From an uncultured Acidobacteriota bacterium (GTDB lineage: Bacteria > Acidobacteriota > Thermoanaerobaculia > Multivoradales > UBA5704), in contig CAVYRF010000002.1 in assembly GCA_963770895.1 (NCBI GenBank), forward strand, positions 1,792,001 through 1,856,000: 64,000 nucleotides of DNA. Direction: 5' to 3'. The notes under the pieces were generated by a model that saw only the letters and a list, made by a program, of their open reading frames with translations, did no database searches and had not been told where the DNA came from. The translations under genes and the position numbers were made by a program. This document shows positions 28,317 to 49,415 of this stretch, piece after piece. Position 1 is the stretch's first letter; every line of letters begins with the position of its first letter.

Positions 28317-30245
28317 ATGTGCGGCATCGCCGGCACCTACGATCCGCGCGGCCGGCGCGCCGATGCGGCGGCGGTCGAGCGGATGGCCGGCGCGCTGGCG
28401 CACCGCGGCCCCGATTCCGCCGGCGCGTTTCAAGCCGACGGAGTGATGCTCGGTTTCCGCCGCTTGAGCATCATCGACCTGGCGGGCGGCGACCAGCCGC
28501 TGTTCAGCGAAGACGGCAACCTGGTCCTGGTCTGCAACGGTGAGATCTACGACTACCGCGAGCTGACGGCCGAGCTCACCGCCAAGGGCCACGTCTTTCG
28601 CACCCACAGCGACGTCGAAGTGCTGCTCCACCTGTACGAAGAGCACGGCGCCGACCTGCTTCACCGCATCAACGGCCAGTTCGCCTTCGCGCTCTACGAC
28701 CGGCGCGCGCGCAGCCTGCTTTTGGCGCGCGACCCCTGCGGCATCAATCCGCTCTTCTATACCGTCGTCGACGGCCAGCTGATCTTCGCCTCCGAGATCA
28801 AGGCGATCCTGGAGCACCCGCTGGCGCCGCGCCAGGTCGATCTCACCGGCCTGGACCAGGTCCTCACCTTTCCGGGCCTGGTGGCGCCCCGCACCTTCTT
28901 CAAAGGCATCCGCTGCCTGCCGGCGGGCCACCTGCTGCGCGCCGGCGCGGACGGGGTGGAAGAGCGCGAATATTGGGATCTCACCTATCCCGAGGCAGCG
29001 GACCATGAGCCCGCCGTTTCCGCGGCGCACGAACGAGACTACGTCGACGGCCTGCGCGAGCGGCTGCGCCAGGCCGTGCGCTACCGCCTGCAGGCCGACG
29101 TGCCGGTGGGCCTGTACCTGAGCGGCGGCCTCGACTCTTCGCTCATCGGCGCCCTGATCCATGAGATCTCCGCCACGCCGCGGCACTCCTTTTCGATCGC
29201 CTTCCCCGACCAGGAGATCTCCGAGGCCCGCCACCAACGCCTTATGGCCCAGGCGCTGGGCACGACGCACCACGAGATCTGGTTCGATTGGAGCGAGATC
29301 GCCAACCGCCTGACGCGCATGGTCCACCACTGCGAATGCCCGGTCAAGGAAGCCTTCGACACCTGCGCCCTGGCCCTCTCCGCGGCCGCGCGCCAGGCCG
29401 GCGTGCCGGTGGTGCTCGCCGGCCAGGGCGCCGACGAGCTCTTTGCCGGCTACATGGGCTATCGCTTCGACCAGGCCGGCCTGCGCGCCGCCCGCGCCCA
29501 GACCCTCGAAGGCGCGCTCGAAGACGAGATCCGCGAACGCCTCTGGGGTGAAGCCGGCCTGTTCTATGAAACGGATTTCCTGCCCCTGCGAGACCTCAAG
29601 GCCGCCCTGTACGCCGCCGATCTGGGCGCCAACCTGGCCGATTTCGACTGCACCAACCAACCCCTGCTCGACGGCAGCAAGCTGCGCGGGCGCCACTACG
29701 TCCACCAGCGCTCCTACCTGGACTTCAAGCTGCGCCTGGCCGAGCACCTGCTATCCGAGCACGGCGACCGCATGGTGCTCGCCAACTCGGTCGAGGGCCG
29801 CTATCCCTTCCTGGACCGTGAAGTCGTGCGCTTCGCCACCACCATCCCCCCCACCCTCAAGCTCAACGGCATGCAGGAAAAATACATCGTCAAGCAGGCC
29901 GCCCAAGGCCTGGTGCCGCGCGAAATCATCCAGCGCGAAAAGTTCGGCTTCCGCGCCCCAGGCACCCCCTACCTGCTGCAGCAGCGCATCGAATGGATCG
30001 AAGACCTCCTGTCCGCCGACCGCATCCGCGCCCAGGGCCTCTTCAACCCCGCCACCGTGGAAAACCTCAAGCACCGCTACCGCCAGCCCAGCTTCACCCT
30101 CAACCCACACCTCGAAACCGATCTCCTGATGATCGTCCTCACCTGCGGCCTCCTGGTCGACCAATTCAACCTCTCCACCCCCGCCCCCGCCCCCCGACCC
30201 GCCCTGACCGCCGCCGCCGCCGCGTTCGCCGCCGACGACCTCTAG
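28317..30245 (+). CDS. asnB: Asparagine synthase (glutamine-hydrolysing) family amidotransferase
   Basis: Starts MCGIAG; RGPD, RRLSIID, NGEIY, LSGGLDSS, GQGADELFAGY and VEGRYPFLD. May be a cluster tailoring enzyme rather than housekeeping AsnB. Confidence 0.9.
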   Translation: MCGIAGTYDPRGRRADAAAVERMAGALAHRGPDSAGAFQADGVMLGFRRLSIIDLAGGDQPLFSEDGNLVLVCNGEIYDYRELTAELTAKGHVFRTHSDVEVLLHLYEEHGADLLHRINGQFAFALYDRRARSLLLARDPCGINPLFYTVVDGQLIFASEIKAILEHPLAPRQVDLTGLDQVLTFPGLVAPRTFFKGIRCLPAGHLLRAGADGVEEREYWDLTYPEAADHEPAVSAAHERDYVDGLRERLRQAVRYRLQADVPVGLYLSGGLDSSLIGALIHEISATPRHSFSIAFPDQEISEARHQRLMAQALGTTHHEIWFDWSEIANRLTRMVHHCECPVKEAFDTCALALSAAARQAGVPVVLAGQGADELFAGYMGYRFDQAGLRAARAQTLEGALEDEIRERLWGEAGLFYETDFLPLRDLKAALYAADLGANLADFDCTNQPLLDGSKLRGRHYVHQRSYLDFKLRLAEHLLSEHGDRMVLANSVEGRYPFLDREVVRFATTIPPTLKLNGMQEKYIVKQAAQGLVPREIIQREKFGFRAPGTPYLLQQRIEWIEDLLSADRIRAQGLFNPATVENLKHRYRQPSFTLNPHLETDLLMIVLTCGLLVDQFNLSTPAPAPRPALTAAAAAFAADDL

Positions 30246-32248
30246 ACGACCTCTGGCCGCGCAGGTTGACCAGCAACTGCGGGACGGCACCGAAGAGCCG
30301 CGGCAAAGGTGGCGACGCTTGCGCGCATGGTGGCCACCATTTGGCGATCGAACGCAGCAGCCATGTCGCCGGCTTGCTGCGTCAGCAACCAGGACCTGTG
30401 CGAGCGGGACCTCTTCGCGCACACCAGGCGGACTACCGGCAGCAACACGCCCTCCAGAAGCGGCAGTGCGATACCGGCAGCTTCGCCCAGGCGCGCGAGG
30501 TACGCCCGCGAGGGAACCAGGCTGCCTGTCTCGTAGCGGCTGATCGTAGTACGGTCGATCGACACAGCAGCGCTCATCGCCTCCTGGCTGAATCCGGGGA
30601 TTGCGCGCAACACCCGCACCAGGACGCTCGTTTCGTCGCGCGAGACCGTATCGGTCCGTTCCAAACGGGGGACGTGCGCCATGCGCGCGCTACCGTCCGG
30701 CGTCAGGGGCTGGAAGACCCAGTTCCCCGCCCGCAAAAGCTCCAGGTCTTCGTGCAGCTGCCATAGCTTCTCAGCCGACTGGCATAGCTCGTCAAGGCTG
30801 GCCGTCAGGGCTCGCGAGCCCCATCTCGATTTGACGGTTGCGAAGATTGTTTGCACCAAGGCACCGATCTTCGCGCTCCACTCCCTGCCGTCGAAGTAGA
30901 GAACCGCCAGATCGATCGACACCAGCACCGACTCGTAGTGACTGGTGAAATGCTGGATTTCCGTATGCACCCATTCCAAATCGGCGATCGCTTGTCGGCG
31001 ATCGCCCTGACCTGCGGCCACGCGTGCCTTGAGCCACAATTGCCGGAGGATGTCCAACGTAGACTCACCGGCAAGCGCACCACCCACGCTCTGAAGGCAC
31101 TCGTCGGCCTCTCGACAGCGCCCGATCTGGCACAGACACGCAACCTGGTGATACTGCACCAGCCACTGCATTTCTGGCAGCAACTCGACCAGGGGCGCCG
31201 CCGCGTCCAGCGCGGCGAGCGCATCGTCGACCCGGCCGGCGAGCCGTAAAGCCGTCGCCTTCTTGACCAGCAGCCGGCCAGAATCCTCCGCGGGAGCAAG
31301 GGCAATGGCCCGGTCGAGCAGGCACACGGCGGCAGGCCAGGCTTTTTGCGCCAGGCGGAGCGATGATTCCAGGTCGAGGAGCCGCCATTCTGGCAGCGTG
31401 AATTCCGCGGCTTGATGACCTTCGCCCCACTGCCGCGTCGCAGCAGCCAATTCCGCGTCAGCCGCGGTGAGATCCCCTTTTGACCGATACGCATTTGCAA
31501 GGAATCCGCGCGCGTAGCCCTGCAGGCGCCGCAACCCGCCAGCGTCACCCCGCGCCAGCTGGGCTGCCCGCACGGACAGCTCAGCGAGCTGCATGGATTC
31601 CGTGACGCTGTGAGCGCCGGCGGCAACGCTCGCGTCGCACAGGCGCAGGCACATCGCCCAGGTTTGCAGGTGCAGACCGGTTTCCAATCGTTGGCGCCGC
31701 TCCCGATGGGTGAGCGTCGCCAGCACTCGCCAGTGTGCATCTGCATCCTGATGCGCCACTTCGGCGCGCCGCATCAGGATCGTAGCGGCGGCGTGCTCCT
31801 GCACAAGCTCCGCCAACGCAGGCAACATTTTTAATGTGAACGTATTGACCTGCTGCCGCTCGTCGTGGGTCAGCCCATCTGGCGGTACGGAGTCCGCCGG
31901 GGCGGCTACGGTAGACAACAGCGCGCAAGTCGCGACCGCGCACTCGCCAAGTCCCTCCCCGGCGCCCATGACCGCGGCGAAGTCATCGAAGCGAGCCCGC
32001 GTCAAGCGTATCTTGCCATTTTCGTATTGCGAGAGCTGGCTGGTGGCGAAGCCGCTGGCCTTGGAAAGCTCGATTTGCGACCATCCCATGACGATCCGCA
32101 AGGTCGAAAGAGCAAGGCCCAACGTTGGACGATTGCGGCGTGTCAGCCCCTGCACCACTGCGCGCGGGGCAGCATCGGGCCGGTTGCGGTGACGCCCCAG
32201 GACAGTGCTCAAGGCGGGGGATAGCATTTTCGATCTACTCGCCCTCAT
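30242..32248 (-). CDS. XRE-HTH / TPR / XRE-HTH regulator
   Basis: N-terminal HTH (WSQIELSKASGFATSQLSQYENG), central TPR-like helices (LQGYARGFLANAYR), C-terminal HTH (FSQEAMSAAVSIDRTTISRYETG). Start may be 32227. Confidence 0.8.
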   Translation of the reverse strand: MRASRSKMLSPALSTVLGRHRNRPDAAPRAVVQGLTRRNRPTLGLALSTLRIVMGWSQIELSKASGFATSQLSQYENGKIRLTRARFDDFAAVMGAGEGLGECAVATCALLSTVAAPADSVPPDGLTHDERQQVNTFTLKMLPALAELVQEHAAATILMRRAEVAHQDADAHWRVLATLTHRERRQRLETGLHLQTWAMCLRLCDASVAAGAHSVTESMQLAELSVRAAQLARGDAGGLRRLQGYARGFLANAYRSKGDLTAADAELAAATRQWGEGHQAAEFTLPEWRLLDLESSLRLAQKAWPAAVCLLDRAIALAPAEDSGRLLVKKATALRLAGRVDDALAALDAAAPLVELLPEMQWLVQYHQVACLCQIGRCREADECLQSVGGALAGESTLDILRQLWLKARVAAGQGDRRQAIADLEWVHTEIQHFTSHYESVLVSIDLAVLYFDGREWSAKIGALVQTIFATVKSRWGSRALTASLDELCQSAEKLWQLHEDLELLRAGNWVFQPLTPDGSARMAHVPRLERTDTVSRDETSVLVRVLRAIPGFSQEAMSAAVSIDRTTISRYETGSLVPSRAYLARLGEAAGIALPLLEGVLLPVVRLVCAKRSRSHRSWLLTQQAGDMAAAFDRQMVATMRASVATFAAALRCRPAVAGQPARPEVV

Positions 32249-32496: not shown

Positions 32497-34332
32497 ATGG
32501 TGGGAGGAGACAGGCCACCCTGGGCTAAGGCGCTGAAGGTCTTACGGCTGATCCGACGCTGGAACCGGGCACAGCTGGGGCGGGCCGCGGGCCTTTCGGC
32601 GAGCGCGATCACGCGCTATGAGAAAGGGAACCGCCGGCCGGAAGAGGTGCGCAGCCTGGTATCTGTCATGGGCTACCCGCCCCTGCTTTGGGAGCGTACC
32701 CTGGCGTTCGTAGCCTCTACGGAAGGCGAGCATCCGAACCAGACGGCGCCGGGTGAAACAGCGCCCTCGCCCCGCATCGACGCGCTGGTGGGTGACGCCG
32801 GCCGCTGGGTGAACGAGGTGGTGCGCGAGGCCCTGACCGGGGCGTTCGACGCCCTTGGTGGGACGGGCGCGCGGCCACGGCTCAGGACGCCGCCGATCGG
32901 CGAGGCGCTGGCGATCCTCCGCGCGATCCGCGGCTGGGAGCGCAAGGACCTGGCGGATGCCGTTGCCAGGCCGGAGGAAACCGTCGCCAACTACGAGTAC
33001 GGCAAGACGAAGCCCAAACTGCTGGTCCTCCAGGAGCTGCTTTCAGCGATGGGCTTCTCGTTGGCCGTCTTCGAGTGTGCGCTGGACTTCGTACGCACAG
33101 CGCAGGAGTCGCGCAGAACCCTTGCCGGCGGTGGGCGGGTACTGTCCTGGCAGGTGGAAGAGGTCGCCGCCCAGAAAGCCCGCCGCATCGAGGAGTTCAC
33201 CCGCACCGAGCTCAGCGCCCTGACGGTGGCGGCGCAGGTTCTGGCCTCGCGCGAAGCGGCACCGGTGGCGTGGAAGGCGTTCTCGGCCTGCCCCGAAGTC
33301 AGCCGGCTGGAGCTGGTGCGCCAGGTGGCCGAGTTTCAGACGGCTGGGTTCTGTGAGTTGCTGTGCGAAGAAAGTCTCGCCGCGGCGAGCGACAGCGCGA
33401 GCCGGGCGCGGCAGCTGGCCCAGCTGGCCGAGGCCACGGCCGAGCTGGCCGAGGGGGGACAGGCCTTCCGCTCACGCCTGCGCGGCTATGCCGGCGCCCA
33501 CCTCGCCAATGCCGAGCGGGTGGCTGGCCGCGATCTGCCGGCTGCCGAGGAGACGCTGGAGCGCGCCTTGGCGGCCTGGGACGCCGGTGACGGCGCCGAT
33601 TCCGGCCTGCTCAACGCGGCGCGGGTGTGCGGCCTCACCGCCTCGCTGCGGCGGGCACAACGGCGCTTGCCCGAGGCTCTGGCGGCGCTCGATGAAGGGC
33701 TCAAGATCGACCGCTGGGGAGAAACCCCCACCCTGCTGCTCGCCAAGGCGCGCGCCCTCGTCGAGTTGGGCGAGTACGGGGCTTCGATCGAGCAGTTGCG
33801 GGCCGCGGCGCCGTGGGTCCACGGCGAGCGCGAGCCGCGCAAGCTCTTTGTGATCGAGAATCTGCTGGTGTCCAACCTGTGCCGCCTGGGGCAGTTCGCC
33901 GCCGCCGAGCGGCGGTTGCCCGGACTGCGGCAGCTGGCGCTGCCCAACCGGCTCGACCTGCTGCGGGCAGCCTGGCAAACCGGCATCGTCGCGGCCGGTC
34001 TGGGGCGGGCTGACGAGGCGCTTGCCATCCTGGAGCAGGTGCGCACCGATTTCATCGCTACAGAGAACTTCTACGTTGCAGCGCTGGTCACTCTGGAGCT
34101 GGCGGAGGTACACGCCGGCCTGGGCCACACGGCCGAGGTCAAGGAGTTGGCTCGCAAGTCGGCGCCGGTGTTCGAGAACCAGCAGGTGCATTGCGAGGCG
34201 CAGCGGGCGCTGGCGCTGTTCCGCCAAGCGGCCGAGGAGGAGAAGGTCACCGGCGGGCTGCTTCGCCAGCTCATCGTCTACCTCCATCGTGCCCGGCACA
34301 ATCCGCAGCTGTGCTTCGCCACCGCCGCATGA
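32497..34332 (+). CDS. Tandem XRE-HTH x2 plus TPR regulator
   Basis: HTH1 WNRAQLGRAAGLSASAITRYEKG; HTH2 WERKDLADAVARPEETVANYEYG; C-terminal TPR-like region; GGAGG RBS upstream. Confidence 0.85.
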   Translation: MVGGDRPPWAKALKVLRLIRRWNRAQLGRAAGLSASAITRYEKGNRRPEEVRSLVSVMGYPPLLWERTLAFVASTEGEHPNQTAPGETAPSPRIDALVGDAGRWVNEVVREALTGAFDALGGTGARPRLRTPPIGEALAILRAIRGWERKDLADAVARPEETVANYEYGKTKPKLLVLQELLSAMGFSLAVFECALDFVRTAQESRRTLAGGGRVLSWQVEEVAAQKARRIEEFTRTELSALTVAAQVLASREAAPVAWKAFSACPEVSRLELVRQVAEFQTAGFCELLCEESLAAASDSASRARQLAQLAEATAELAEGGQAFRSRLRGYAGAHLANAERVAGRDLPAAEETLERALAAWDAGDGADSGLLNAARVCGLTASLRRAQRRLPEALAALDEGLKIDRWGETPTLLLAKARALVELGEYGASIEQLRAAAPWVHGEREPRKLFVIENLLVSNLCRLGQFAAAERRLPGLRQLALPNRLDLLRAAWQTGIVAAGLGRADEALAILEQVRTDFIATENFYVAALVTLELAEVHAGLGHTAEVKELARKSAPVFENQQVHCEAQRALALFRQAAEEEKVTGGLLRQLIVYLHRARHNPQLCFATAA

Positions 34333-34393: not shown

Positions 34394-34417
34394 AGCCGCC
34401 CTGTCGCGTGGGCGGCT
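34394..34417. terminator. GC hairpin between convergent regulator and peptide genes
   Basis: AGCCGCCC-tgtcgcgt-GGGCGGCT, a perfect 8-bp stem with no U-tract. Related sequence recurs at about 34978-35001 and 37432-37460. Confidence 0.5.
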
Positions 34418-34434
34418 GCCGCTCGTGGGCGGAT

Positions 34435-34707
34435 TCAACCGCCGTAGGGATCGGCTGCTGATCCGTCGTCGGTTTGCGCGTTGGAAGAGGTGCTGGCCGG
34501 TCGCCGGATCGTCACCTTGGCAGGCGGTGCCGCGGTCGGCTCCAGCGGCGCCAGTTCGCCGGAGAGCCATCCCCAGAGCCGGATCAACGGCTCCCAGACC
34601 GCGGCGGGCGGCTTGCCCTGCGCCTGGAGCGGTGCGGCGAAGGATGCGGTGGAGGCCACCGTCAGGGCAAGGAGCAGGGCGAGGGCGATGCTGCGAGGAA
34701 CACGCAT
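34435..34707 (-). CDS. Small secreted peptide precursor 1 (90 aa, ends TDDGSAADPYGG)
   Basis: AAGGAG RBS before the ATG; signal peptide MRVPRSIALALLLALTVASTASFA; paralog of 35032-35304 with the frame conserved. Confidence 0.82.
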   Translation of the reverse strand: MRVPRSIALALLLALTVASTASFAAPLQAQGKPPAAVWEPLIRLWGWLSGELAPLEPTAAPPAKVTIRRPASTSSNAQTDDGSAADPYGG

Positions 34708-34875
34708 GCGGGACTCCTTCTGCAAAGGCGACGGCGACGCCAGCCGGAATGGCCGGCGCGGCGCCCCCCGAAAGCTAGGGTGCCCGTGCTGTCAAGGATG
34801 CGGCTGAAAGCACCCGTTTCTGTGGATCTTTTTGACGCCGCTCTGCCGGCAGTCCTTGGAGGAGCATCTTATGCT

Positions 34876-34980
34876 ATGCCAGCGAAGCGGGGGCGCAGCG
34901 ACGGGCTCGGCCTGGCACCGAGCTTTCTGCGCCAGCTCAAGGGCTGGAGCCAGGGGCAGGTGGCGACGGCGGCCGGCGCC
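34876..34980 (+). pseudogene. 5' stub of an XRE-TPR regulator
   Basis: MPAKRGRSDGLGLAPSFLRQLKGWSQGQVATAAG matches the first ~35 aa of 35467-37338, after which homology stops. Confidence 0.8.
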
Positions 34981-35031
34981 CTGTCGCGTGGAAGGCTCAG
35001 CCGGCGGGGCAGCTGGCGCTCGCAAGCGGAT

Positions 35032-35304
35032 TCAGCCGCCATAGGGGTCAGGTGCTGATCCCTCGTCGGTTTGCGGGTTGGAAGAGGTGCTGGCCGGCCG
35101 CTGGATCGCTCCCTTGGCAGGTTGTGCCGCGGTCGCATGCAGCGGCGCCAATTCGCCGGAGAGCCATCCCCAGAGCCTGGTCAACGGCTCCCAGACCGCG
35201 GCTGGCCGCTTGCTCTGTGCCTGGAGCGATGCGGCGAAGGATGCAGTGGCAGTCACCGTCAGGGCAAGGAGCAGGGCGAGGGCGATGCTGCGAGGGATAC
35301 GCAT
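35032..35304 (-). CDS. Small secreted peptide precursor 2 (90 aa, ends TDEGSAPDPYGG)
   Basis: GGAAGGAG RBS; signal peptide MRIPRSIALALLLALTVTATASFA; divergent from the regulator at 35467. Confidence 0.82.
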   Translation of the reverse strand: MRIPRSIALALLLALTVTATASFAASLQAQSKRPAAVWEPLTRLWGWLSGELAPLHATAAQPAKGAIQRPASTSSNPQTDEGSAPDPYGG

Positions 35305-35466
35305 GCGGGGCTCCTTCCGCGGAGGCGACGGCGATGCCGGCCGGAATAGCCGGCACGGCGCCCCCGAAAGCCAGGGTGCCCGTGCTGTCAAGGATGCGGC
35401 TGAAAGCACCCGTCGCTATGGATCTTTTTGACGCCGCTCTGCCGGCAGTCCTTGGAGGAGCATCTT

Positions 35467-37338
35467 ATGCCAGCGAAGTTGGGACGCGGTGACGAGCTGG
35501 GCCTGGCGCTGAGCTTCCTGCGCCAGCTCAAGGGCTGGCGGCAGGGCCAGGTGGCGGCGGCGGCCGGCGTCAGCCCGAGCGGCCTCTCTGCCCTCGAACA
35601 GGGCAAACGGCGACAACCTACGTTGAGGACCCTCGGTCCGGTCGCGGCTGCCCTCGGAGTAGACCTGGCGCTCGTGGACGAGATGGTGGCTCTGATCAGG
35701 GAACTGCGCCGCGGTGAGACGCCGAAGGCGGCGCGGGGCGGCGCAAGCTGCGATGCGGTCTTGGGCGCCGAAGCTGCCTTTCGCCAGAGGGTGAGGGAAG
35801 CGGTGATCGCAACGACTTCCCACGCGCTGGATGGTTCCGGATGCGCTCACCAGCCGAGCCGGCCACGGCTGACGGAGGTCGGCAGCGCCGAGGAGCTGGG
35901 CCTGTCGCTCACTCTTTTGCGCCAGGTGCGGGGGTGGAGGCAAAAAGACCTGGTTGCCGCCTCCGGCATCTCATTGGAGGTGATCCAGGCGATCGAGCAA
36001 GGCCGGCGGCGCCGGCTGGCGTCGGAGCTGCCGGCCATCCTGGCCGCGCTCGGCATGGATATGAGCGCCCTGGCGAAGGTAGCGGCCCTGGTGCGCCAGG
36101 TGCGCCGCCATCAGGGGACGGCGCAGCTGCCCTCGACGCTGCCATGGGCCCCACCGCCTCACGGCTGGGCTCCCGCCCTGCGCCCGGATCTCGCCGGATT
36201 GCTGCACGCCGGGGTCCAGGCCGCTAGCGCGGTGCCGCCGGATCAGGGCGAGAGGCGCCGGCGTGTGGTCGCGCTCTTGCCAGTCCTTGCCGAGTGTCCG
36301 CCGGAAGCGCAGCGGGCCCTGGCCCGCTTGGTGGCAGATCTGCGCACGCCGGAAGCGTGTCAGCTGCTGTGCGAGGAGAGTCTTGCCGCGGCGGGCGACA
36401 GCGCGAGCCGGGCGCGGCAGCTGGCCGAGCTGGCCGGGATCACAGCTGAGCTGGCCGAAGGTGGCGACGCCTTCCGCTCACGCCTGCGCGGCTATGCCGG
36501 TGTCCACCTGGCCAACGCCGAGCGGGTGGCTGGCCGCGACCTGCCGGCTGCAGGGGAGACGCTGGAGCGCGCCCTGGCAGCCTGGGACGCCGGTGCCGGC
36601 GCCGACTCCGGGCTGCTCAACGCGGCGCGGGTGTGCGGCCTCACCGCCTCGCTGCGGCGGGCGCAGCGGCGCTTGCCGGAGGCTTTGGCGGCGCTCGACG
36701 AAGCGCTGAAGATCGACCGCTGGGGCGAAACTCCCACCCTGCTGCTCGGAAAGGCCCGCGCCCTCGTCGAGCTGGGCGACTACGAAGCTTCGATCGAGCA
36801 GTTGCGGGCGGCGGCGGCGAGCGTGGAAGGCGAGCGCGAGCCGCGCAAGCCTTACCTGATCGAGAACCTGCTGGTGTCCAACCTGTGCCGCCTGGGGCAG
36901 TTCGGCGCCGCCGAGCGGCGGTTGCCCGCGTTGCGGCAGCTGGCGCTGCCCAACCGGCTCGATCTGCTGCGGGTGGCCTGGCAAACCGGCACCGTTGCGG
37001 CCGGTCTGGGGCGCACCGACCAGGCGCTTGCCGTCCTGCTGCAGGTGCGCGCCGACTTCATCGCCACGGACAACTTCTACGTTGCAGCGCTGGTGACTCT
37101 GGAGCTGGCGGAAGTACACGCCGGCCTGGGCCACACAGCCGAGGTCAAGGCGTTGGCCCGCGAGTCGGCGCCGGTGTTCGAGAACCAGCAGGTGCATCGC
37201 GAGGCGCAGCGGGCGCTGGCGCTGTTCCGCCAGGCAGCCGAGGAGGAGAGGGCCAGCGGCGAGCTGCTCCGCCAGCTCATCGTCTACCTCCACCGTGCAC
37301 GGCACGATCCGCAGCTGAGCTTCGCCGCGAGGGCATGA
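35467..37338 (+). CDS. Tandem XRE-HTH x2 plus TPR regulator
   Basis: GGAGGAG RBS; HTH1 WRQGQVAAAAGVSPSGLSALEQG; HTH2 WRQKDLVAASGISLEVIQAIEQG; TPR half nearly identical to that of 32497-34332. Confidence 0.87.
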   Translation: MPAKLGRGDELGLALSFLRQLKGWRQGQVAAAAGVSPSGLSALEQGKRRQPTLRTLGPVAAALGVDLALVDEMVALIRELRRGETPKAARGGASCDAVLGAEAAFRQRVREAVIATTSHALDGSGCAHQPSRPRLTEVGSAEELGLSLTLLRQVRGWRQKDLVAASGISLEVIQAIEQGRRRRLASELPAILAALGMDMSALAKVAALVRQVRRHQGTAQLPSTLPWAPPPHGWAPALRPDLAGLLHAGVQAASAVPPDQGERRRRVVALLPVLAECPPEAQRALARLVADLRTPEACQLLCEESLAAAGDSASRARQLAELAGITAELAEGGDAFRSRLRGYAGVHLANAERVAGRDLPAAGETLERALAAWDAGAGADSGLLNAARVCGLTASLRRAQRRLPEALAALDEALKIDRWGETPTLLLGKARALVELGDYEASIEQLRAAAASVEGEREPRKPYLIENLLVSNLCRLGQFGAAERRLPALRQLALPNRLDLLRVAWQTGTVAAGLGRTDQALAVLLQVRADFIATDNFYVAALVTLELAEVHAGLGHTAEVKALARESAPVFENQQVHREAQRALALFRQAAEEERASGELLRQLIVYLHRARHDPQLSFAARA

Positions 37339-37392
37339 GGGTCATGCAAGCACCTGGCGGCCAAGCGCGGTCCATGCCCGTCACCGGTGCCG

Positions 37393-37534
37393 CCTGAATA
37401 GCGTATGCAGGCGGAGTGCATTTTTGATCTCGAGCCGCCCTGTCGCGTCGAAGGCTCAGCGGTCCGCGCCCGTCCGTGGTGCCACTTTTTGTCCCCCTGA
37501 ATATCGTATGCAGGCCAGGTATATTTTGATCTCG
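37393..37534. promoter_or_regulatory. Two ~40-bp direct repeats, each with an imperfect palindrome (candidate operators)
   Basis: CCTGAATAgcgTATGCAGG...TTTTGATCTCG at 37393-37432 and CCTGAATAtcgTATGCAGG...TTTTGATCTCG at 37496-37534. Confidence 0.55.
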
Positions 37535-37625
37535 CCGCTCGGTCGCCCGCTGGCCATTTTGGCGGTCCCGGCGACGGAGCTGACCGCGGGCGGACTGCGC
37601 CCGCTCCGCCCTGGTAGGATTGGGC

Positions 37626-38195
37626 ATGCAGCCGCGAAGCCTGATCTCGCCGGAAGGGTACAACCCCCGCGCCGTCGCCGTCCGCGCCCTGGCCGCCCAG
37701 CTGGACCCTCTCCTCAGATCGCTCGCGGCGCGGATCAAGGACGCGACCACGCCCGATCTGGAGTGGCAGCCGCGGCCCGGCACCAACACCATCGGCATGC
37801 TCCTGGCCCACATGGCCGTGACCGAAACCTTCTGGATGCAGGCCGGCGCCCAAGGCATCGACTCCCACCAGGAAGTCGACACGATCGTCCACGCGACGCT
37901 CGGCATCCACATCGACGACGACGGCCTCCCGCTGGCGCCGCACGCATCCCATCCGCCAACCCTCGCCGGCAAGACCGCGGCCGACTACCTTGACCTGCTG
38001 CACCGAGCGCGCCGGGCAACCCACGCCACCCTGCGCGCCTGGGACGATGCAGACCTGGAGCGCATCGTGACCGTCGATGGCAACCAGCTCACCCGCGGCT
38101 GGATCCTCTTTCACATCGTCGAACACTTCGCCCAGCACACCGGCCAGATCGCCCTCCTCGCGAGCCTGCGCCAGCGCACCCTCGCCGCCGGCTGA
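37626..38195 (+). CDS. DinB/DUF664-like protein
   Basis: NTIGMLLAHMA near the N-terminus and ILFHIVEHFAQHTGQI near the C-terminus (DinB His pattern). Confidence 0.85.
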   Translation: MQPRSLISPEGYNPRAVAVRALAAQLDPLLRSLAARIKDATTPDLEWQPRPGTNTIGMLLAHMAVTETFWMQAGAQGIDSHQEVDTIVHATLGIHIDDDGLPLAPHASHPPTLAGKTAADYLDLLHRARRATHATLRAWDDADLERIVTVDGNQLTRGWILFHIVEHFAQHTGQIALLASLRQRTLAAG

Positions 38196-38292
38196 TCGAG
38201 CGCCCGGCTGGGAGCTGGCGACCTCGTACTTGCTGGAGGTGTAGGCGACCGGATCGATCGCCTTGAGCGCATGGAGCTGAGCTGGTAGTCGC

Positions 38293-39129
38293 CTACGACA
38301 GATCCGTTCTAGTGAGATCCAGCAGGGCATTCCTGACAGCCCGGCGAAAGCGCCTATGTGCCTTTCCACTCCGGCCGTGCAGGACGAGGATCTTGCGATT
38401 TGCAAGGGTGTGCCGCAGAGCAGATTTCTGATCGAGATCGGACGCGCAGGAAGGGAACGGACCTTCGAACCATTCGCGGAGAGACGCTTCGTCCGCGATG
38501 AGGAGGAGTCGGGCGGGGAGGAGTTCTGGGAGAGTCTGCAATTCCCAGAGCAGGCCTTTGCCGCCAGGGCGCGATATGTCGATCACGGCGGCGTGGCAGT
38601 GCGGTGCAATGGATAAAATGAGAGGTTGCCAATCATCGTCACTCTGCACCTTGAGGCGCACGACCTGCTGCACGCTGAGCCACGCCTTGGTAGCGGGGCT
38701 CTTCGAAGTCACGGCAAGAACGCTCCGAGAGGCGAGGAATCGTCGCCAGGTGTCGGTGAAGAACAGGGCGCAGCCTCCGACCACGGTCGAGGCGATTTCT
38801 GCCCGCAGCCAGCGAGGGTGCCACAAGAATTCAACGCTCAAGAAAATGAGCGTTGACAAGGTAGTCAGGCCCAAGAACGGGGCTACAAGTTCGATGATCG
38901 AGATGGGGGTCGAGGCGGCGTCGGCCAGTGCGACGACCTGAAACGTCGTACCCAAGGCGTTGACGACGACGTCCTGGAATCTGGCGCCAGATGTGGCATC
39001 GTCGTTCGGGCGCAGGAAGAGGATCGTGCGGGTCTGGCTTGGTTTCGGCCAGCGGTGGTTCTCATTCAAGGGCCAGTCCAGCAACAGCTCGGGACCCGCA
39101 GGTGGTGTCGCAATCGACGTGAGCCGCAA
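38293..39129 (-). CDS. Hypothetical membrane protein, possibly 5'-truncated
   Basis: 278-aa ORF with lower GC than its neighbours, two hydrophobic segments, ILFLRP and GLLWEL motifs; weak TTG start. Confidence 0.5.
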   Translation of the reverse strand: MRLTSIATPPAGPELLLDWPLNENHRWPKPSQTRTILFLRPNDDATSGARFQDVVVNALGTTFQVVALADAASTPISIIELVAPFLGLTTLSTLIFLSVEFLWHPRWLRAEIASTVVGGCALFFTDTWRRFLASRSVLAVTSKSPATKAWLSVQQVVRLKVQSDDDWQPLILSIAPHCHAAVIDISRPGGKGLLWELQTLPELLPARLLLIADEASLREWFEGPFPSCASDLDQKSALRHTLANRKILVLHGRSGKAHRRFRRAVRNALLDLTRTDLS

Positions 39130-39220
39130 TGTGTGGAATGCCCTGAATGCCGCGATGGTTCTCAGGCCGGTGACGTGGCCGGCGTTGATTCCAGGCTGCG
39201 CCCCACCACGGTCTGGTGGC

Positions 39221-41293
39221 TCAATGCTCGGCGGCGCGGAGCAGCCGATCGAGGGTGGCGGATTCCACCGGCTTTACCAGGTGGACGTCGAAGCCGGCTT
39301 CCTGGGAGCGCTGCTTGTCTTCGTCGTGACCCCAGCCGCTGGCGGCGATGAGCAGGATGTGGCTGCCCCAGTCTTCGGCGCGGATGCGGCGCGCCAGGTC
39401 GTGGCCGTTGAGCTTGGGCATGGCGACGTCGAGCACCATCACGTCGGGGCGAAAGTCGCGCGCGATGGCCAGGGCCTGCTCGCCGTCGTGAGCGGTGCGC
39501 GTCTGGTGTCCCAGCAGGCTGAGCACCAGCGACAGGCTCTCCGCTGCGTCGACGTTGTCGTCCGCCACCAGGATGCGGCGGCCGGGGCTTGGCGGCGCGG
39601 TGGGGGCGAGCGCCGGCGCCGGGGAGGTGGCCGGCCGCGCCGCTGCCGTGGGCGCCAGCGGCAGGTGGACGCGAAATTCGCTGCCGGCGCCGGGTCCGTC
39701 GCTGTGCGCCTCGATGGTGCCGCCGTGCATCTCCACCAGCCGCCGCACGATGGTCAGGCCGATGCCCAGGCCGCCGCCGACCTGGGCGTGCGAGCGGTCG
39801 ACCTGCGCGAACATGTCGAAGATGCCGCTGAGCTTGGCGGCGGGGATGCCGATGCCGTTGTCGCGCACGGTGACCACCGCCGTTGCGCCGTCCTGGCGCG
39901 CCAGGGTGAGCTCGATGCGGCCGCCGTGCGGCGTGAACTTGGCGGCGTTGTTGAGCAGGTTGGCGAACACCTGCACGATGCGCGTCGGATCGGCTTCCAG
40001 CACCAGCTCTTCGCCGGGGAGCGTGACCGCCAGGGTGTGGCCGCACTGTTCGATCAGCGGCCGGCTGGTTTCGAGCGCGTCGCGCAAGGCGCCGGCGAGC
40101 GGCAGCCGGGTGCGCCGCAGGTCGACGATGCCGCGGTTCACCCGCGACAGGTCCAGCAGGTCGTCGATCAGCCGCACCATCTGAGCCAGCTGCCGCTCCA
40201 TCGTTTCCCGCGCCATCACCGCGACGTTGCCGTCGCCGGGAGCCATCTTGAGCAGTTCCAGGGCGTTGCGGATGGGAGCCAGGGGGTTGCGCAGCTCGTG
40301 CGCCAGGGTGGCCAGAAACTCGTCCTTGAGGCGGCTCGCGTCGCTCAGCTGCGCCGCGATCTGGCGAAAGCGGGCTTCGCTGGCCTGGAGGGCGACGTCG
40401 CCGCGCATGCGCTCGGTGACGTCGGCGCCTTCGACGAAGATGCCCGCCACCCTGCCGTCGCTGTCCTTGATCGGCTGGTAGACGAAGTCCACGTACCGCT
40501 CGCTGACCGCGCCGCCCGGCGTCGTCTGGACGGCGTACTTGGCGCCCCTGGCCACGTAGGCCGTGCCGCTGGTGAAAACCTCGTCGAGCAGGGTCAGGTA
40601 GCCCTGCTCCACCGCGTCCGGCAGGGCTTCGGCGACCGTCCGGCCCAGAACGGGCCGATGCCCGATCAGCTGCAGGTAGCTGGGATTGGCCAGCTCGATC
40701 CTGTGTTCGGCGCCGCGCAGCATCGCCATGAAGGTCGGCGCCTGTTCGAACAGCTGGGACAGCTGGTCGCGTTCCAGGGCCAGCCGGCGAGCCATGAGGA
40801 TCTGCTCGGTCGTCTCGGTGCAGACGACCAGGATGCCGCCGATGCCGCCGGGTGCGGTCAGCTCGTCGATCGGGCTGTAGCTGTACGTCCAGTAGACGTC
40901 TTCGCGCCGCCCATGGCGGGTGATCGGCACCAGGTGATTGACCTGCCAGGTGGCGCCGCCGCCGCTGGCGACCTGCTCGATCTGCGGGCCGATGATGTCC
41001 CAGATCTCGGCCCAGACTTCGCGCGCCGGCCGGCCCAGCGAGCCGGGGTGGCGCTCCGGTCCGATCGATTCCCGGTAGGCGTCGTTGTACAGGCAGGCCA
41101 GGTCAGGCCCCCACCAGATGTACATCGGGTGCCCGGTATTGAGCATGAGGCGCACCACCGTGCGCAGCGATTGCGGCCAGCCGGCGGGCGGGCCGAGCGA
41201 CGACGCGGTCCAGTCGTGCGCGCGCATCAACGCCCCCATCTCGCCGCCGCCGCTCAGAAAGCTGGGCTCGGTCGTCTCGGGTCCCACACTCAT
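39221..41293 (-). CDS. PAS-domain hybrid sensor histidine kinase/response regulator
   Basis: HDWTASSLGPPAGWPQSL N-terminus, PAS folds, H-box LAHELRNPL, NLLNNAAKFT, DNGIGI, GGLGIGL and a C-terminal receiver (LVADDN, LDVAMP, HLVKPV). Confidence 0.93.
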   Translation of the reverse strand: MSVGPETTEPSFLSGGGEMGALMRAHDWTASSLGPPAGWPQSLRTVVRLMLNTGHPMYIWWGPDLACLYNDAYRESIGPERHPGSLGRPAREVWAEIWDIIGPQIEQVASGGGATWQVNHLVPITRHGRREDVYWTYSYSPIDELTAPGGIGGILVVCTETTEQILMARRLALERDQLSQLFEQAPTFMAMLRGAEHRIELANPSYLQLIGHRPVLGRTVAEALPDAVEQGYLTLLDEVFTSGTAYVARGAKYAVQTTPGGAVSERYVDFVYQPIKDSDGRVAGIFVEGADVTERMRGDVALQASEARFRQIAAQLSDASRLKDEFLATLAHELRNPLAPIRNALELLKMAPGDGNVAVMARETMERQLAQMVRLIDDLLDLSRVNRGIVDLRRTRLPLAGALRDALETSRPLIEQCGHTLAVTLPGEELVLEADPTRIVQVFANLLNNAAKFTPHGGRIELTLARQDGATAVVTVRDNGIGIPAAKLSGIFDMFAQVDRSHAQVGGGLGIGLTIVRRLVEMHGGTIEAHSDGPGAGSEFRVHLPLAPTAAARPATSPAPALAPTAPPSPGRRILVADDNVDAAESLSLVLSLLGHQTRTAHDGEQALAIARDFRPDVMVLDVAMPKLNGHDLARRIRAEDWGSHILLIAASGWGHDEDKQRSQEAGFDVHLVKPVESATLDRLLRAAEH

Positions 41294-41403
41294 TCCTAAA
41301 TCCCTTTGTGATAGCAATTTACCTTACCACAACGAGACGGTGCGGGGCCGTGGCCGGGGTGCGCCGGCGACGCTTCGCGGAGTGCGCTATCGTCCCGAGC
41401 GAC

Positions 41404-45994: not shown

Positions 45995-47839
45995 TCAAGC
46001 GCCGGCCGCCAGCTGGTCGGAAAACAGGGCCCGAAACGGCGGGCATGCGGCGAGCAGCTCGGGCAGGGTGCCGTCGCCGGCGATCCGTCCGCCGTGCAGC
46101 ATGACGATCCGCGGCCAGCGCGCCACCGACGACAGACGGTGGGCCAGCACCAGCACCGTGCGCCGCGCCAGCCAGGGCGCCAGGGCGGCCAGGATCTCCG
46201 CCTCGGCGTCGCTGTCCAGGGCGCTGGTCGCCTCGTCCAGAATCAGCACCGCCGGCTCGCGGACGATGGCGCGGGCCAAGGCGATGCGCTGGCGCTCGCC
46301 GCCCGAGAGCCCCCGCCCGCCCTCCGCGATGGGAGTGGCGAGGCCGTCCGCAAAGCGGCTCACGCGGTCCAGCTGGACCAGCCGGGCCGCCGCCAGCAGC
46401 GCCGCGTCCGCGACCCCCTCGCTGCCGTAGCGGAGGTTTTCGCCCAGGCTGCCGCTCCACACCGCCGGGTCCTGCTCGACGACGCAGACGGCGCGCCGCA
46501 GCTCGTCCAGACGCAGCTCGCGCAGGTCCGTCCCGTCGAGCCGGATGCAGCCGGCCTGCGGATCGCCGAAGCGTGCCACGAGGCCGGCGAGCGTGCTCTT
46601 GCCGCCGCCGCTCTCGGCCACCAGGGCCGCCGCCGCTCCAGGTTCCAGGACCAGGTCCAGCCCCTCGAGCAGCGGGCGCTGCCGGTCGTGGCGGAAATGG
46701 ACGTGCTCGATGCGCACCTGGCCGCGGCACGGGCGCGGCAGGATCTCCGTCCCCTCCCGCTCCGCCTGTGGCAGATCGACGATCTGGTACACCCGCGCCG
46801 CCGCCGCCAGCGCCGGCTGCGCCAATCCCTGCAGCTCGGCGATCCGCCGCAGCGGCTCGGCGACCTGGGCCGCGTACAGGCAGAAGGCGAGGAGCGCTCC
46901 CGGCGTCGCCCGCCCCGACTGCACCTGCAGGCTGCCATAGGCGATGCTCGCCAGCAGCAGGCCGCCGGTCACCAACCAAACCGCCGCGATCAGCAGCCCC
47001 GAGCTGGTTTCGACCGCCACGGCGGTGCGCCGGCAGCGTTCGCTCGCGGCGCCGAAGCGGCGGCGCTCCGCGTTCTCGTTGCGATAGCCCTTGATGGTGG
47101 TCCAGCCGTGCAGCTGCTCGGACAGGACCGCGGTCAGCAGCGCCGCTTCGCGCCGCGCCCGCTCGCCCCGGCGGCGCAGCGTGCGGCCCATGCGATCCAC
47201 CAGCCACGCCACCGGCGGGACCGCCGCCGCGGCCAGCAGCGCCAGCCGCCAGTCCAGCCTCAGCATCAGCACCAGCGCGCCCACCGCGACCAGGCTTTCG
47301 CCCAACAGCCGCTTGACGACGTTGACCACGAAGCCGGCGAGCTGCGCGGCATCCTGCAGCACGCGCGACAGCAGCTCGCCGCTGTGAAACGCGCGCACCG
47401 TCCCGGTCTCCACGGCCAGCAGCCGGGCCACCGCTCGCTCGCGCAAACGGGCGAGCAGGCGCTGATCGGCGGCGCTGAGCAGGGCGCGGCTGACCGCCAG
47501 GGCGCCGACCATCAGCGCCAGCTCCAGGCCGCCCAGCAGCAGCAGGCGCCGGGCCTGGGGCGGCGCCGCGCGCAGCAGCGGCCCTTCCACCCACTGCTTG
47601 ACCAGCCAGGTCAGCGCCAGCTGTGCCCCGCCGGCCACCGCGGTCGCCGCCAGACCGGTGATCAGGAGCCCGGGCGACCGCGCCGCGTCGCGCAGCAGGC
47701 GGCCGAAGACTGGCGGCGCCGGCGGCTTGGGCGCGGCGACCGCCGGCGCCGCCTGCACCGCCGCCGCCACGTCACCAGAGACGGGCGGCGTATCCACGGC
47801 GACCGGGGGCAAGGCGTGTACCATGGTTTCTTGTGACAT
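45995..47839 (-). CDS. ABC exporter, MsbA-like (TMD plus NBD)
   Basis: AESGGGKST, LSGGERQRIALARA, ILDEATSALD and AHRLS; lipid A gene context. Confidence 0.85.
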   Translation of the reverse strand: MSQETMVHALPPVAVDTPPVSGDVAAAVQAAPAVAAPKPPAPPVFGRLLRDAARSPGLLITGLAATAVAGGAQLALTWLVKQWVEGPLLRAAPPQARRLLLLGGLELALMVGALAVSRALLSAADQRLLARLRERAVARLLAVETGTVRAFHSGELLSRVLQDAAQLAGFVVNVVKRLLGESLVAVGALVLMLRLDWRLALLAAAAVPPVAWLVDRMGRTLRRRGERARREAALLTAVLSEQLHGWTTIKGYRNENAERRRFGAASERCRRTAVAVETSSGLLIAAVWLVTGGLLLASIAYGSLQVQSGRATPGALLAFCLYAAQVAEPLRRIAELQGLAQPALAAAARVYQIVDLPQAEREGTEILPRPCRGQVRIEHVHFRHDRQRPLLEGLDLVLEPGAAAALVAESGGGKSTLAGLVARFGDPQAGCIRLDGTDLRELRLDELRRAVCVVEQDPAVWSGSLGENLRYGSEGVADAALLAAARLVQLDRVSRFADGLATPIAEGGRGLSGGERQRIALARAIVREPAVLILDEATSALDSDAEAEILAALAPWLARRTVLVLAHRLSSVARWPRIVMLHGGRIAGDGTLPELLAACPPFRALFSDQLAAGA

Positions 47840-47852
47840 CCGTGAGAGCTCG

Positions 47853-49415
47853 ATGATAGCGGAGCCGGCCGAGCCGGGTCGCGTGGCCGCCTCGCCCGGC
47901 TGGTGGGTCGCGGCGGCGCTGGGGCTCTACGGCGCGCTGATGGGCGTCGCGGTGGGTGCCGTGCTCGACCCGCTGGAGAGGCTGGCGCGGTGGCGGCGGC
48001 GCGCGCGGCCGGACGACCTGGCCGAGCGCCAGGGCCGCGCCAGCGCTCCCGCGGCGACGGGGGGCGGGCGGCGCATCCTGCTGCACGCGGTTTCGGTGGG
48101 CGAGATGCGCGCCGCGGCGGCGCTGGCGCACGCCCTTGAGAGCGTGCAGCCCGGCGTCGAGCTGATCGTCACCGCCGGCAATCGCGACGGCCGCGCCGCG
48201 GCGGAGCGGTTGCTGAGCGGCTGCCCCGCGGCGCGGGCCGTGCAGCTCCTCCCCTGGGACCGGCCGGCGGCGATGCGCGCATGGCTGGCGCGGCTGCGCC
48301 CGGACGCCGCCGCGGTGGTGGAAGCCGAGATCTGGCCGGGCCTCTTCGGTGCCTGCCGTCAGCTGGGCATCCCGCTCGCGGTGGTGAGCGGGCGCCTGAC
48401 CGGCGCCAACGTGCGCGGCTACCGGCTGGCGCGCCCCATCTTTGCGCGCGTCCTTGCCGGCGCGGCGTGGATCGGCGTGCAGGAGCCCCTGGACCGTCAG
48501 CGCTTCCTGGCGATCGGCGCGCCGCCGGGCGCCGTGTACGTGCTCGGCGACCTCAAGGCCGGCGCGCCCGCGGCGCCCGCGAGCCTGGCCGCGCCAGCCG
48601 CCTTCGGCGGACCTTGGATTGCCGGCTCGATCGCGGCGCCCCGGCCGCTGCTGGTCGCCGGCAGCACGCACGCTCCCGAGGAACGCTGGCTCATTGCGGC
48701 CCTGGAGCGGCTCGTCCGGCCGGAGCAGCGGCCCCGCCAGGCGGCGGCGATCTCGCTGCCGCGTTGTGCCGACGAGCCGCGGGCGTTGCAGGACCAGCTG
48801 CGGCTTGATCTGGCGCCGCGCTGCGCCGACGAGCCGCAGGCGTTGCGGGCGCTACGGGACCGGCCTCGGCTTGTCCTGGCGCCGCGCTCGATCGGCCGTG
48901 CCGCGGCGGTGGCGCGCCTGGCGCGCCGCCGCGGCTTGCGCTGCCAGATGTGGAGCGAGCAGCCCGGCGGCGACGATTGGGACGTGCTGGTGCTCGATCG
49001 GCTTGGCCCCTTGGCGGCCCTCTATCCCGGAGCCGCGCTGGCGTTCGTCGGCGGCACGCTGGCCCGCCGCGGCGGCCACACGCCACTGGAGGCCGCGGCG
49101 TGCGGCGTGCCGCTGCTGGCGGGGCCGCACCGCCAGCACATTGCGGCCGTCGCCGCGCGGCTCGAACGGGCCGGCGGCTTGCAGACCGTCGGAAACGCCC
49201 GCCAGCTGGCGGCCGCATGGCAGTCGCTGCTGGCCGACCTGCCCCGCCGGCGCCGCATGCGCAGCGCGCTGCTGACCGCGACCCGCGACGGCTGCGACGT
49301 CGCGGCGCGCTATGCCCGCGCGCTGCTGGCCGGCGGTCCGGGGATCGCGGATACCGCGGCCGCGGCGCCACCGGCCGGCGCCGCGAACGCCGCGGCCAGC
49401 TCGCGCCGTCCGTAG
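47853..49415 (+). CDS. waaA: Kdo transferase (WaaA/KdtA)
   Basis: LHAVSVGE, LPWD, EAEIWP, GDLK, AGSTHAPEE and FVGGTL..RGGHTPLEAA. Confidence 0.85.
   Translation: MIAEPAEPGRVAASPGWWVAAALGLYGALMGVAVGAVLDPLERLARWRRRARPDDLAERQGRASAPAATGGGRRILLHAVSVGEMRAAAALAHALESVQPGVELIVTAGNRDGRAAAERLLSGCPAARAVQLLPWDRPAAMRAWLARLRPDAAAVVEAEIWPGLFGACRQLGIPLAVVSGRLTGANVRGYRLARPIFARVLAGAAWIGVQEPLDRQRFLAIGAPPGAVYVLGDLKAGAPAAPASLAAPAAFGGPWIAGSIAAPRPLLVAGSTHAPEERWLIAALERLVRPEQRPRQAAAISLPRCADEPRALQDQLRLDLAPRCADEPQALRALRDRPRLVLAPRSIGRAAAVARLARRRGLRCQMWSEQPGGDDWDVLVLDRLGPLAALYPGAALAFVGGTLARRGGHTPLEAAACGVPLLAGPHRQHIAAVAARLERAGGLQTVGNARQLAAAWQSLLADLPRRRRMRSALLTATRDGCDVAARYARALLAGGPGIADTAAAAPPAGAANAAASSRRP

Follow-up and report, generated by a model that had tools for sequence, protein, structure and literature searches.

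The peptide gene pair and its duplication

The DNA analysed here, a 64,000-nucleotide stretch from an uncultured member of the Acidobacteriota (contig CAVYRF010000002.1, positions 1,792,001 to 1,856,000; hereafter 'the window'), contains two small, closely similar genes, pep1 and pep2, that appear to encode exported propeptides. Both lie on the reverse strand, pep1 at 34435..34707 (stop codon at 34435–34437) and its paralogue pep2 at 35032..35304, each as an open reading frame (ORF) of 90 codons whose ATG is preceded by an AAGGAG ribosome-binding site. They are wedged between genes for regulators that combine helix-turn-helix (HTH) domains with tetratricopeptide repeats (TPR)—a setting missed by an earlier description of this DNA, made from its letters and ORF translations and here called the 'sequence-only reading'. 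Gene callers often overlook such small genes in high-GC DNA.

Working along the cassette from left to right, we see the order reg3, reg1, pep1, pep2, reg2, with XRE-type HTH and TPR elements in all three regulators. Reg3 (30242..32248, reverse strand; 668 aa) represents a third type of regulator, with an HTH, a TPR region and a further HTH at its C-terminus. Reg1 (32497..34332, forward strand; 611 aa, cytoplasmic) is convergent with pep1 and has two XRE-type HTH domains followed by C-terminal TPR (Pfam matches: HTH_3 at 3.5e-11, HTH_31 and TPR_12). Reg2 (35467..37338, forward strand) is divergent from pep2 and similarly pairs two XRE HTH domains with a TPR superhelix; it comprises 623 aa when read from the ATG at 35467, the frame being open from a TTG at 35428. 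The gaps between peptide and regulator genes in the window are 103–123 nt.

Each peptide can be divided into a signal peptide, a tryptophan-containing helical segment, a linker and a short acidic tail. For pep1 these parts correspond to nucleotides 34636–34707 (residues 1–24), 34546–34602 (residues 36–54), 34474–34545 (residues 55–78) and 34438–34473 (residues 79–90; TDDGSAADPYGG), all on the reverse strand; for pep2 to 35233–35304, 35143–35199, 35071–35142 and 35035–35070 (TDEGSAPDPYGG), likewise on the reverse strand. The signal region of both reads M-R-x-P-R, then a hydrophobic core, then T-A-S-F-A before A, with n-, h- and c-regions recognised by eye and the cleavage site called by the –3/–1 rule. 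The Trp segment, VWEPL[IT]RLWGWLSGELAP, has a mean Eisenberg hydrophobicity of ~0.39 and a hydrophobic moment of ~0.5; the linker is rich in Pro, Ala, Thr and Ser; and the tails conform to a consensus TD[DE]GSA[AP]DPYGG, differing only by D81E and A85P. Overall, 74 of 90 residues are identical (82%; BLASTP) in a gap-free alignment. The last 13 residues have an isoelectric point (pI) of 4.05 and a mass of 1.25–1.29 kDa, whilst the mature peptides as a whole are not cationic (pI 5.0 and 6.5).

The description of the pair given by the sequence-only reading is thus borne out: the signal peptide ending in ASFA, the amphipathic Trp segment, the acidic tail and the two differences within the last 12 residues can each be located in both ORFs, and the coding sequences align without indels, so that frame and exact length are kept. 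An AlphaFold model of the peptide, built from 18 homologues, places helices at residues 3–24 and 38–51—the latter, with a predicted local distance difference test score (pLDDT) of ~76, coinciding with the Trp segment—and leaves the remainder unstructured (pLDDT 44–56); the modelled chain fits a precursor rather than a folded protein. From their sequences, pep1 and pep2 are real, recently duplicated genes for propeptides with predicted Sec export.

By the same kind of evidence, the two genes derive from a young tandem duplication of 598 bp. The first unit (34406..34978) holds pep1, the divergent promoter region and ~34 codons from the start of a regulator gene; the second (35004..35569) holds pep2, its promoter region and the start of reg2; the two are 88% identical over 574 nt by self-BLASTN. 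The regulator part of the first unit is a truncated 5′ remnant of a reg2-like gene (34876..34978, forward strand; MPAK...) that ends at the duplication junction and carries, relative to the second unit, a 5-nt insertion directly before its ATG; the remnant was recognised through ORF 1525–2118 of locus L001, which matches residues 38–66 of reg2. Between pep2 and reg2 (35305..35466), two blocks are identical to their counterparts in the first unit (35375–35412 to 34779–34816, 38 nt; 35420–35450 to 34824–34854, 31 nt). These blocks carry TTGACA-like and TTGACG hexamers on opposite strands and are partly conserved at loci L004 and L011, and we take 35305..35466 as a candidate shared promoter and operator region. 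A scan for consensus sigma-70 promoters and terminators returned no sites, and when the conserved blocks were sought across the genome, with as many as 8 and as many as 6 mismatches tolerated, only the two units themselves came up, so that no regulon could be derived.

In a contig of run X2, position 34822 is joined to 35419, skipping 596 nt, as expected for a form with a single peptide unit. Since 52 letters at the junction fit both sides, it may be either a natural single-unit variant or an assembly collapse of the 88%-identical repeat; the contigs of four runs cover the locus patchily, and the junction is not taken as evidence.

The duplication bears directly on how the pair is to be read. 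Non-coding DNA between peptide and regulator genes has been kept at least as well as the coding part; because pep1 and pep2 lie within one tandem duplication with equally kept non-coding DNA, their likeness is mostly recent common descent, and the pair by itself is a poor guide to whether the protein is under selection. The sequence-only reading had argued for such selection from the preserved frame and length. That part of its argument does not carry; what does stand is the direction of change in the individual segments, together with the wider family described below. By the Nei-Gojobori method, the ratio of non-synonymous to synonymous change (pN/pS) between pep1 and pep2 is 0.17 both for the tail (four synonymous changes, two non-synonymous) and for the Trp segment, and 1.06 for the linker, which has values of 1.65–2.46 in comparisons with the third copy. 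Across the copies, pN/pS ranges over 0–0.23 for the tail against 1.06–2.46 for the linker, values that rest on 2–9 changes per segment, counts too small for a test. In terms of residues, the tail of the pair has changed at the rate of the whole protein (2 of 12 against 16 of 90).

Conservation in the peptide family and the C-terminal unit

The genome that contains the window encodes four paralogues of the peptide (E 2e-53 to 8e-11), two of them outside the window, at C2:365281 (79% identical) and C2:502514 (44% identical). Members are rare in large collections: five proteins were found in one of 5.8 billion sequences and 13 representatives among 1.84 billion. Members share the signal peptide, a W-x-P-L-x-R-L-W-G-W-L-S segment, a variable linker and a C-terminal [QRH]-[TP]-[DN]-[DE]-G-x-x-x-D-P-[YNL]-G-(G). 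Neither Pfam nor NCBIfam has a family for it; its Atlas neighbours are unnamed clusters, mostly from Acidobacteriota (scores 0.90–0.91); and no fused or longer forms of the peptide were found, which is weak evidence. A class-wide search with a profile tuned to the linear subtype was positive in 3 of 201 genomes; only four of these 201 belong to the same family as the source of the window, and the result is a weak guide to how widely the peptide family occurs. As it stands, the family is found almost only in Acidobacteriota labelled Thermoanaerobaculia, a label also borne by the related locus L029.

The third copy, the 79%-identical one at C2:365281, deserves separate description. Its locus (L003, positions 363784–367053 of C2) encodes a peptide with a tail identical to that of pep2; the 5′ leader of the gene runs straight into the final ~119 codons of a reg2-like gene, and a reg3-like C-terminal fragment lies downstream. 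It is a scrambled partial copy of the window cassette, probably decaying.

Across 18 homologues, mean pairwise column identity is highest in the tail (0.60), followed by the signal peptide (0.51), the Trp segment (0.48), the stretch directly after the signal peptide (0.30) and the linker (0.24); when two close paralogues are dropped, tail and linker score 0.58 and 0.23. The tripartite layout that the sequence-only reading proposed from two peptides is therefore a trait of the whole family. That reading had also named beforehand, as the observation that would count against its proposal, a tail no better conserved than the linker; with 0.60 for the tail and 0.24 for the linker, this attempt at refutation fails. 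Within the tail, G82, D86, P87 and G89 are invariant in all 18 homologues, the variable positions inside this fixed scaffold being 81, 83–85 and 88. The best other 12-column block of the mature part, the Trp core at residues 38–49, scores 0.61 and so matches the tail: judged by the alignment, the mature part has two conserved islands, tail and Trp core, and not one. We also considered the C-terminal Gly-Gly as a ubiquitin-like or sulfur-carrier-like feature and rejected it, the final G being absent or replaced in 6 of 18 homologues and the protein being of predicted exported type.

Comparison with more distant relatives indicates that the tail, which with the Gln before it forms a unit Q-T-D-[DE]-G-x-x-x-D-P-Y-G-G, is the cysteine-free, single-copy form of a family repeat, xDxGCxxDPxGxC, which is present in one to four copies in relatives. 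Distant relatives from the same genome family begin with a signal peptide and a helix of the L-W-G-W-L type, after which come between two and four units, T-D-E-G-C-G-I-D-P-S-G-K-C being an example. The tail of pep2, TDEGSAPDPYGG, aligns position by position with TDEGCGIDPSGKC of locus L014; where the unit has its first Cys, pep2 has Ser, and its chain stops short of the second Cys. Some relatives contain several linear units (G-S-x-D-P-N-G), and two tails stand in tandem in P0006 and in three of the four copies of genome G005. Because some relatives carry two tails in tandem, we regard the tail as a separable unit. In one G005 tandem pair, the first tail shows three synonymous changes and no non-synonymous one, whilst the second, 16 of the gene's 115 codons, collects five of its nine non-synonymous changes (Fisher p = 0.0025)—a hint of diversification in terminal units around an unchanging G...DP.G scaffold.

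Regulators: linkage, descent and fold

The association between peptide and regulator extends well beyond the window. In 15 of 18 loci of relatives, a regulator homologue lies within ~1.5 kb of the peptide match; the remaining three are L022 and L026, which look spurious, and L024. A genome-wide motif scan selected small ORFs that begin like a signal peptide and contain either a Cys-bounded loop or [DN]PxG among their nine C-terminal residues. It returned 36 ORFs, 19 of them within 1.5 kb of a regulator, although only 2.2% of the DNA lies that close to one (binomial p = 2.5e-22); the other 17, far from regulators, look like off-frame translations. With one more found in addition to the 19, the genome has at least 20 genes for small secreted proteins with a DPxG unit beside regulators. 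Two layouts recur: in the first, which includes the window pair, eight peptide genes are flanked by two regulators encoded on the strand opposite to the peptide gene; in the second, six single-unit genes lie 1–592 nt upstream of a co-directional regulator.

The TPR-domain profile matches 48 ORFs in the same genome, and these ~48 regulator ORFs and at least 20 DPxG genes amount to an unusually large paralogous expansion. More widely, the regulator family comprises 354 proteins at E ≤ 1e-5 among 8000 candidates scored, the named ones labelled Thermoanaerobaculia. Regulators of the reg3 type (HTH-TPR-HTH) form a clade of their own, which includes those at C2:1905118, 5559264 and 4274306, and their paralogues accompany several other cassettes in the genome. 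Another regulator paralogue (locus L007, G000:C2:2518487–2521708) has beside it a short ORF that encodes a signal peptide and a V-W-T-W-L helix and lacks a DPxG unit; this ORF may be a divergent or decayed member of the peptide family.

The two regulators that flank the peptide pair share one half of their sequence and little of the other. Their 3′ halves (33352–34320 in reg1, 36358–37326 in reg2) agree at 90% of positions over 972 nt, whereas identity between the N-terminal halves of the proteins is only ~25%. In the tree, the two TPR domains are sister branches (support 99/98), and in other cassettes of the same clade the TPR domains also pair within the locus. Reg1 and reg2 are mosaics, probably as a result of gene conversion in the TPR-coding part.

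In an AlphaFold2 model of reg2 (pLDDT 83) we see two HTH bundles and, over residues 260–611, ~18 helices, mostly with pLDDT >90; on this model, about nine TPRs make up the C-terminal domain, a superhelix of a type to which extended peptides bind. The matches of a Foldseek search were TPR superhelices in general, Rap and PlcR appearing within the first 50. With VIA-align, the best Z score is that of LGN (22.1; root-mean-square deviation 4.2 over 310 residues), followed by RapJ–PhrC (4gyo; 21.4), Rap of phage phi3T with its pheromone (21.3; the Rap matches 4gyo, 8rsv and 8rst span 21.2–21.4), NprR in its apo form (5dbk; 20.6) and NprR with NprX (4gpk; 19.6), the NprR alignments covering ~300 residues. 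Rap, NprR and LGN all bind peptides in their groove, and across the three the scores (19.6–22.1) are to be read as ties. Pfam and NCBIfam recognise only generic HTH and TPR families in the regulators.

Directly after reg2, at 37284–41299, lie ORFs of 373 aa (reverse strand) and 779 aa (forward strand) without Pfam or NCBIfam match, followed by two genes for PMT_2-type glycosyltransferases.

A propeptide–receptor interpretation and its relation to known systems

Genetically encoded peptide pheromones with cytoplasmic HTH-TPR receptors are textbook Gram-positive biology, and this locus looks, by analogy, like Gram-positive peptide signalling in a Gram-negative phylum. Our preferred reading, to which we give a probability of roughly 0.5, is that it is a propeptide–receptor cassette of RRNPP-like type in an acidobacterium of the Thermoanaerobaculia. 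One account lists as RRNPP features a right-handed superhelix of 5–9 TPR or TPR-like repeats with a concave peptide pocket, an N-terminal HTH in those members that are transcription factors, a Sec-exported propeptide encoded next to the receptor, a C-terminal pheromone and re-import by Opp (PMC9765709). Set against such features, the regulators have a superhelix in the expected range of 5–9 TPRs (Pfam TPR_12 and TPR_16; the AlphaFold2 model; Z 19.6–21.4 to Rap and NprR) and an N-terminal HTH, although HTH_3/HTH_31 match twice in both reg1 and reg2, a doubling unlike known members; and a small gene stands beside the receptor, as seen in the short gaps of the window, in the loci of relatives and in the genome-wide scan. 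The feature that does not agree is the restriction to Bacillota and their mobile elements: host and relatives are Acidobacteriota of the Thermoanaerobaculia, and cytoplasmic HTH-TPR peptide sensing is presented as a trait of Bacillota (PMC10075063, PMC9765709). A literature search for RRNPP together with Acidobacteria turned up no paper combining the two.

If this interpretation is right, Sec would export the precursor and its signal peptide would be removed; proteolysis would then release the C-terminal unit, with the Trp helix perhaps keeping the precursor at the membrane or presenting it to the protease. The unit would accumulate outside the cell or in the periplasm, be taken up again and occupy the concave TPR groove of both flanking regulators, altering their DNA binding; the first target would be the conserved divergent promoter between peptide and regulator genes, thus closing an autoregulatory loop. 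The ligand-binding half that reg1 and reg2 share and their differing double-HTH halves would fit a single ligand specificity kept by gene conversion: with homogenised TPR halves and divergent HTH halves, a single type of peptide would thereby control two different DNA-binding heads. In the unit itself, the invariant G...DP.G would act as a turn scaffold, any specificity residing in the three x positions and in the residue that follows DP.

A more far-reaching version, which we hold tentatively and consider somewhat less probable than the cassette itself, is that Acidobacteriota of the Thermoanaerobaculia type run a large, independently evolved pheromone system in a diderm setting. At least 20 propeptide genes and ~48 receptors would belong to it; a turn-forming G-x3-D-P-x-G unit, linear or disulfide-closed, would be cut from a Trp-helix propeptide and sensed in the cytoplasm by pairs of HTH-TPR proteins with gene-converted ligand halves and differing DNA-binding halves. 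Were the tail indeed the signal, a soil phylum that is abundant but poorly represented in culture would communicate by peptides of a kind peculiar to it, and the passage of a 1.3-kDa peptide through both membranes, outwards and back, would call for an explanation. Synthesis of so short a unit (QTDDGSAADPYGG, QTDEGSAPDPYGG) is inexpensive, making the proposal directly testable by binding and reporter assays, and the G-x3-DP-x-G motif offers a simple handle for finding such genes.

Saying this, a number of points weigh against the propeptide–receptor interpretation. The host is diderm (a Kdo transferase gene lies at 47598–49415 of the window), and a peptide of 12–13 residues (~1.25–1.3 kDa) is large for porins and for classical Opp uptake. 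Neither the loci of relatives nor the cassettes of the genome contain a conserved protease or transporter gene; the genome does encode two binding proteins of the Opp/Dpp type (SBP_bac_5), which are not specific. The Trp core is as conserved as the tail, so that the tail need not be the only or main active part. Known pheromones frequently vary more than any other part of their systems, whereas the pheromone proposed for this family is the best-conserved part. In fold, Rap and NprR match no more closely than the eukaryotic LGN does, which shows, as far as models go, a domain of peptide-binding type and nothing more specific; similarly, a profile of 59 regulators run against the PDB gave only matches in the HTH region among the best 60 of 94, with no sequence relation to RRNPPA receptors (Rap, Rgg, NprR, PlcR, PrgX or AimR) detected, although a remote homology may exist. 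All the counts given here are inflated by relatedness, the loci belonging to a single genome family. For the tail, cleavage, passage through the outer membrane, re-uptake and binding are all steps that we infer.

Several of these points would suit a different explanation, namely that the 66-residue mature protein acts uncleaved outside the cytoplasm, anchored by its Trp helix, with the DPxG element binding a cation, an envelope component or a surface receptor, and with regulators that only control expression and sense some other ligand. We regard this as unlikely, though it is the strongest of the alternatives. It would account for a Trp core as conserved as the tail (0.61 against 0.60), strongly amphipathic and interfacial in character, and for cassettes that conserve no protease, exporter or importer; relatives with several loops and disulfide-type Cys pairs could be stable extracellular repeat proteins; and TPR domains bind many types of ligand, LGN scoring as well as Rap. 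The protein itself makes the idea less attractive: outside the helix the chain is predicted to be disordered and its linker evolves freely, which would be unusual for a whole protein at work, and in single-unit members the motif sits at the very C-terminus. The near-obligate, one-to-one pairing with ~48 regulator paralogues, with gaps between peptide and regulator of as little as 1 nt in operon-like arrangement, is moreover typical of cognate signal–receptor pairs and not of an effector gene and its regulator.

The sequence-only reading had gone further than a single signal, proposing that the tails represent two specificity variants. In its explicit form—DDGSAA and DEGSAP as two pherotypes, each matched to its own receptor—we find this doubtful and have dropped it. 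Variation at positions 81, 83–85 and 88 within an invariant scaffold and the diversified second tail of G005 would be in keeping with pherotypes, for which PlcR–PapR offers a precedent (PMC2441798). The two tails of the window, however, differ only by a conservative exchange (D/E) and at one variable site (A/P), at a rate equal to that of the whole protein, and the tail of pep2 is that of the decayed L003 copy. Nor did the duplication, which is young, bring a second receptor with it, only a dead 5′ regulator stub; and the TPR halves of reg1 and reg2, sister branches in the tree, are near-identical at ~90%.

That the genes encode precursors of a ribosomally made peptide, post-translationally modified or antimicrobial in the manner of a bacteriocin, with tail or Trp helix as its core, the regulators as regulators of the pathway and perhaps a tie to the adjacent cluster for a polyketide synthase and non-ribosomal peptide synthetase (PKS-NRPS), is very improbable: the repeated core-like units of relatives, the Trp-rich amphipathic helix and the end of a large PKS-NRPS cluster with an Asn-synthase-like gene ~4 kb away speak for it, but no modifying enzyme, immunity gene or dedicated transporter is conserved beside the peptides, the precursors use a predicted Sec signal peptide and the mature peptide is not cationic.

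The PKS-NRPS cluster itself is a large hybrid that lies within 1–30245 of the window. It includes a FAAL-ACP-KS-AT-KR-ACP gene at 16618–23562, an AT-ACP-aminotransferase-monooxygenase-C-A gene, a C-A-T-TE gene, ABC and MacB-type exporters, and TauD, luciferase-like oxygenase and AsnB-like genes; the genome has ~31 regions with PKS/NRPS domains. A general link between the cassettes and secondary-metabolite clusters was considered and rejected, 4 of 19 cassettes lying within 20 kb of one of the 31 regions, which by a rough estimate is about chance.

Returning to the propeptide–receptor interpretation, a known system that it resembles in layout is NprR–NprX of the Bacillus cereus group, a member of the RRNPP/RRNPPA family: a cytoplasmic receptor with an N-terminal XRE HTH and about nine TPRs, and beside it a small gene for a Sec-exported propeptide. 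There is no detectable sequence relation between the two, identity in the fold alignment being 14–15%. The receptor in the acidobacterium, a diderm and not a member of the Bacillota, has two tandem HTH domains; its peptide gene is flanked by two receptors and accompanied by a third type; and the unit, at 12–13 residues, is built on a G-x3-DP-x-G scaffold and preceded by an additional conserved Trp helix in the pro-region.

With Rap–Phr, the proposed system would share a pheromone at the C-terminus of an exported propeptide and many paralogous cassettes per genome, as well as precursors that in some cases contain two or more pheromone copies and a fold match at Z 21.2–21.4; tandemly duplicated pheromones do occur among the Phr propeptides of Bacillus phages (PMC11343458). 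Unlike the regulators described here, Rap is without an HTH and acts on response regulators; Phr pheromones have 5–6 residues, and the repeats of the present family are often closed by cysteine pairs. PlcR–PapR likewise couples an HTH-TPR regulator to an adjacent small exported peptide, the ligand being the C-terminal residues of PapR in an autoregulated system with pherotypes (PMC9765709, PMC2441798); PlcR, however, has five TPRs and ranks lower in the Foldseek search (3u3w at 36, 2qfc at 40), whilst PapR has neither the Trp helix nor the DPxG scaffold. The TPR domain of LGN/Pins, finally, is the best match in fold, a superhelix that takes up extended peptides in its inner groove; as an unrelated eukaryotic scaffold without an HTH, it is evidence only that this type of fold is a general binder of peptides.

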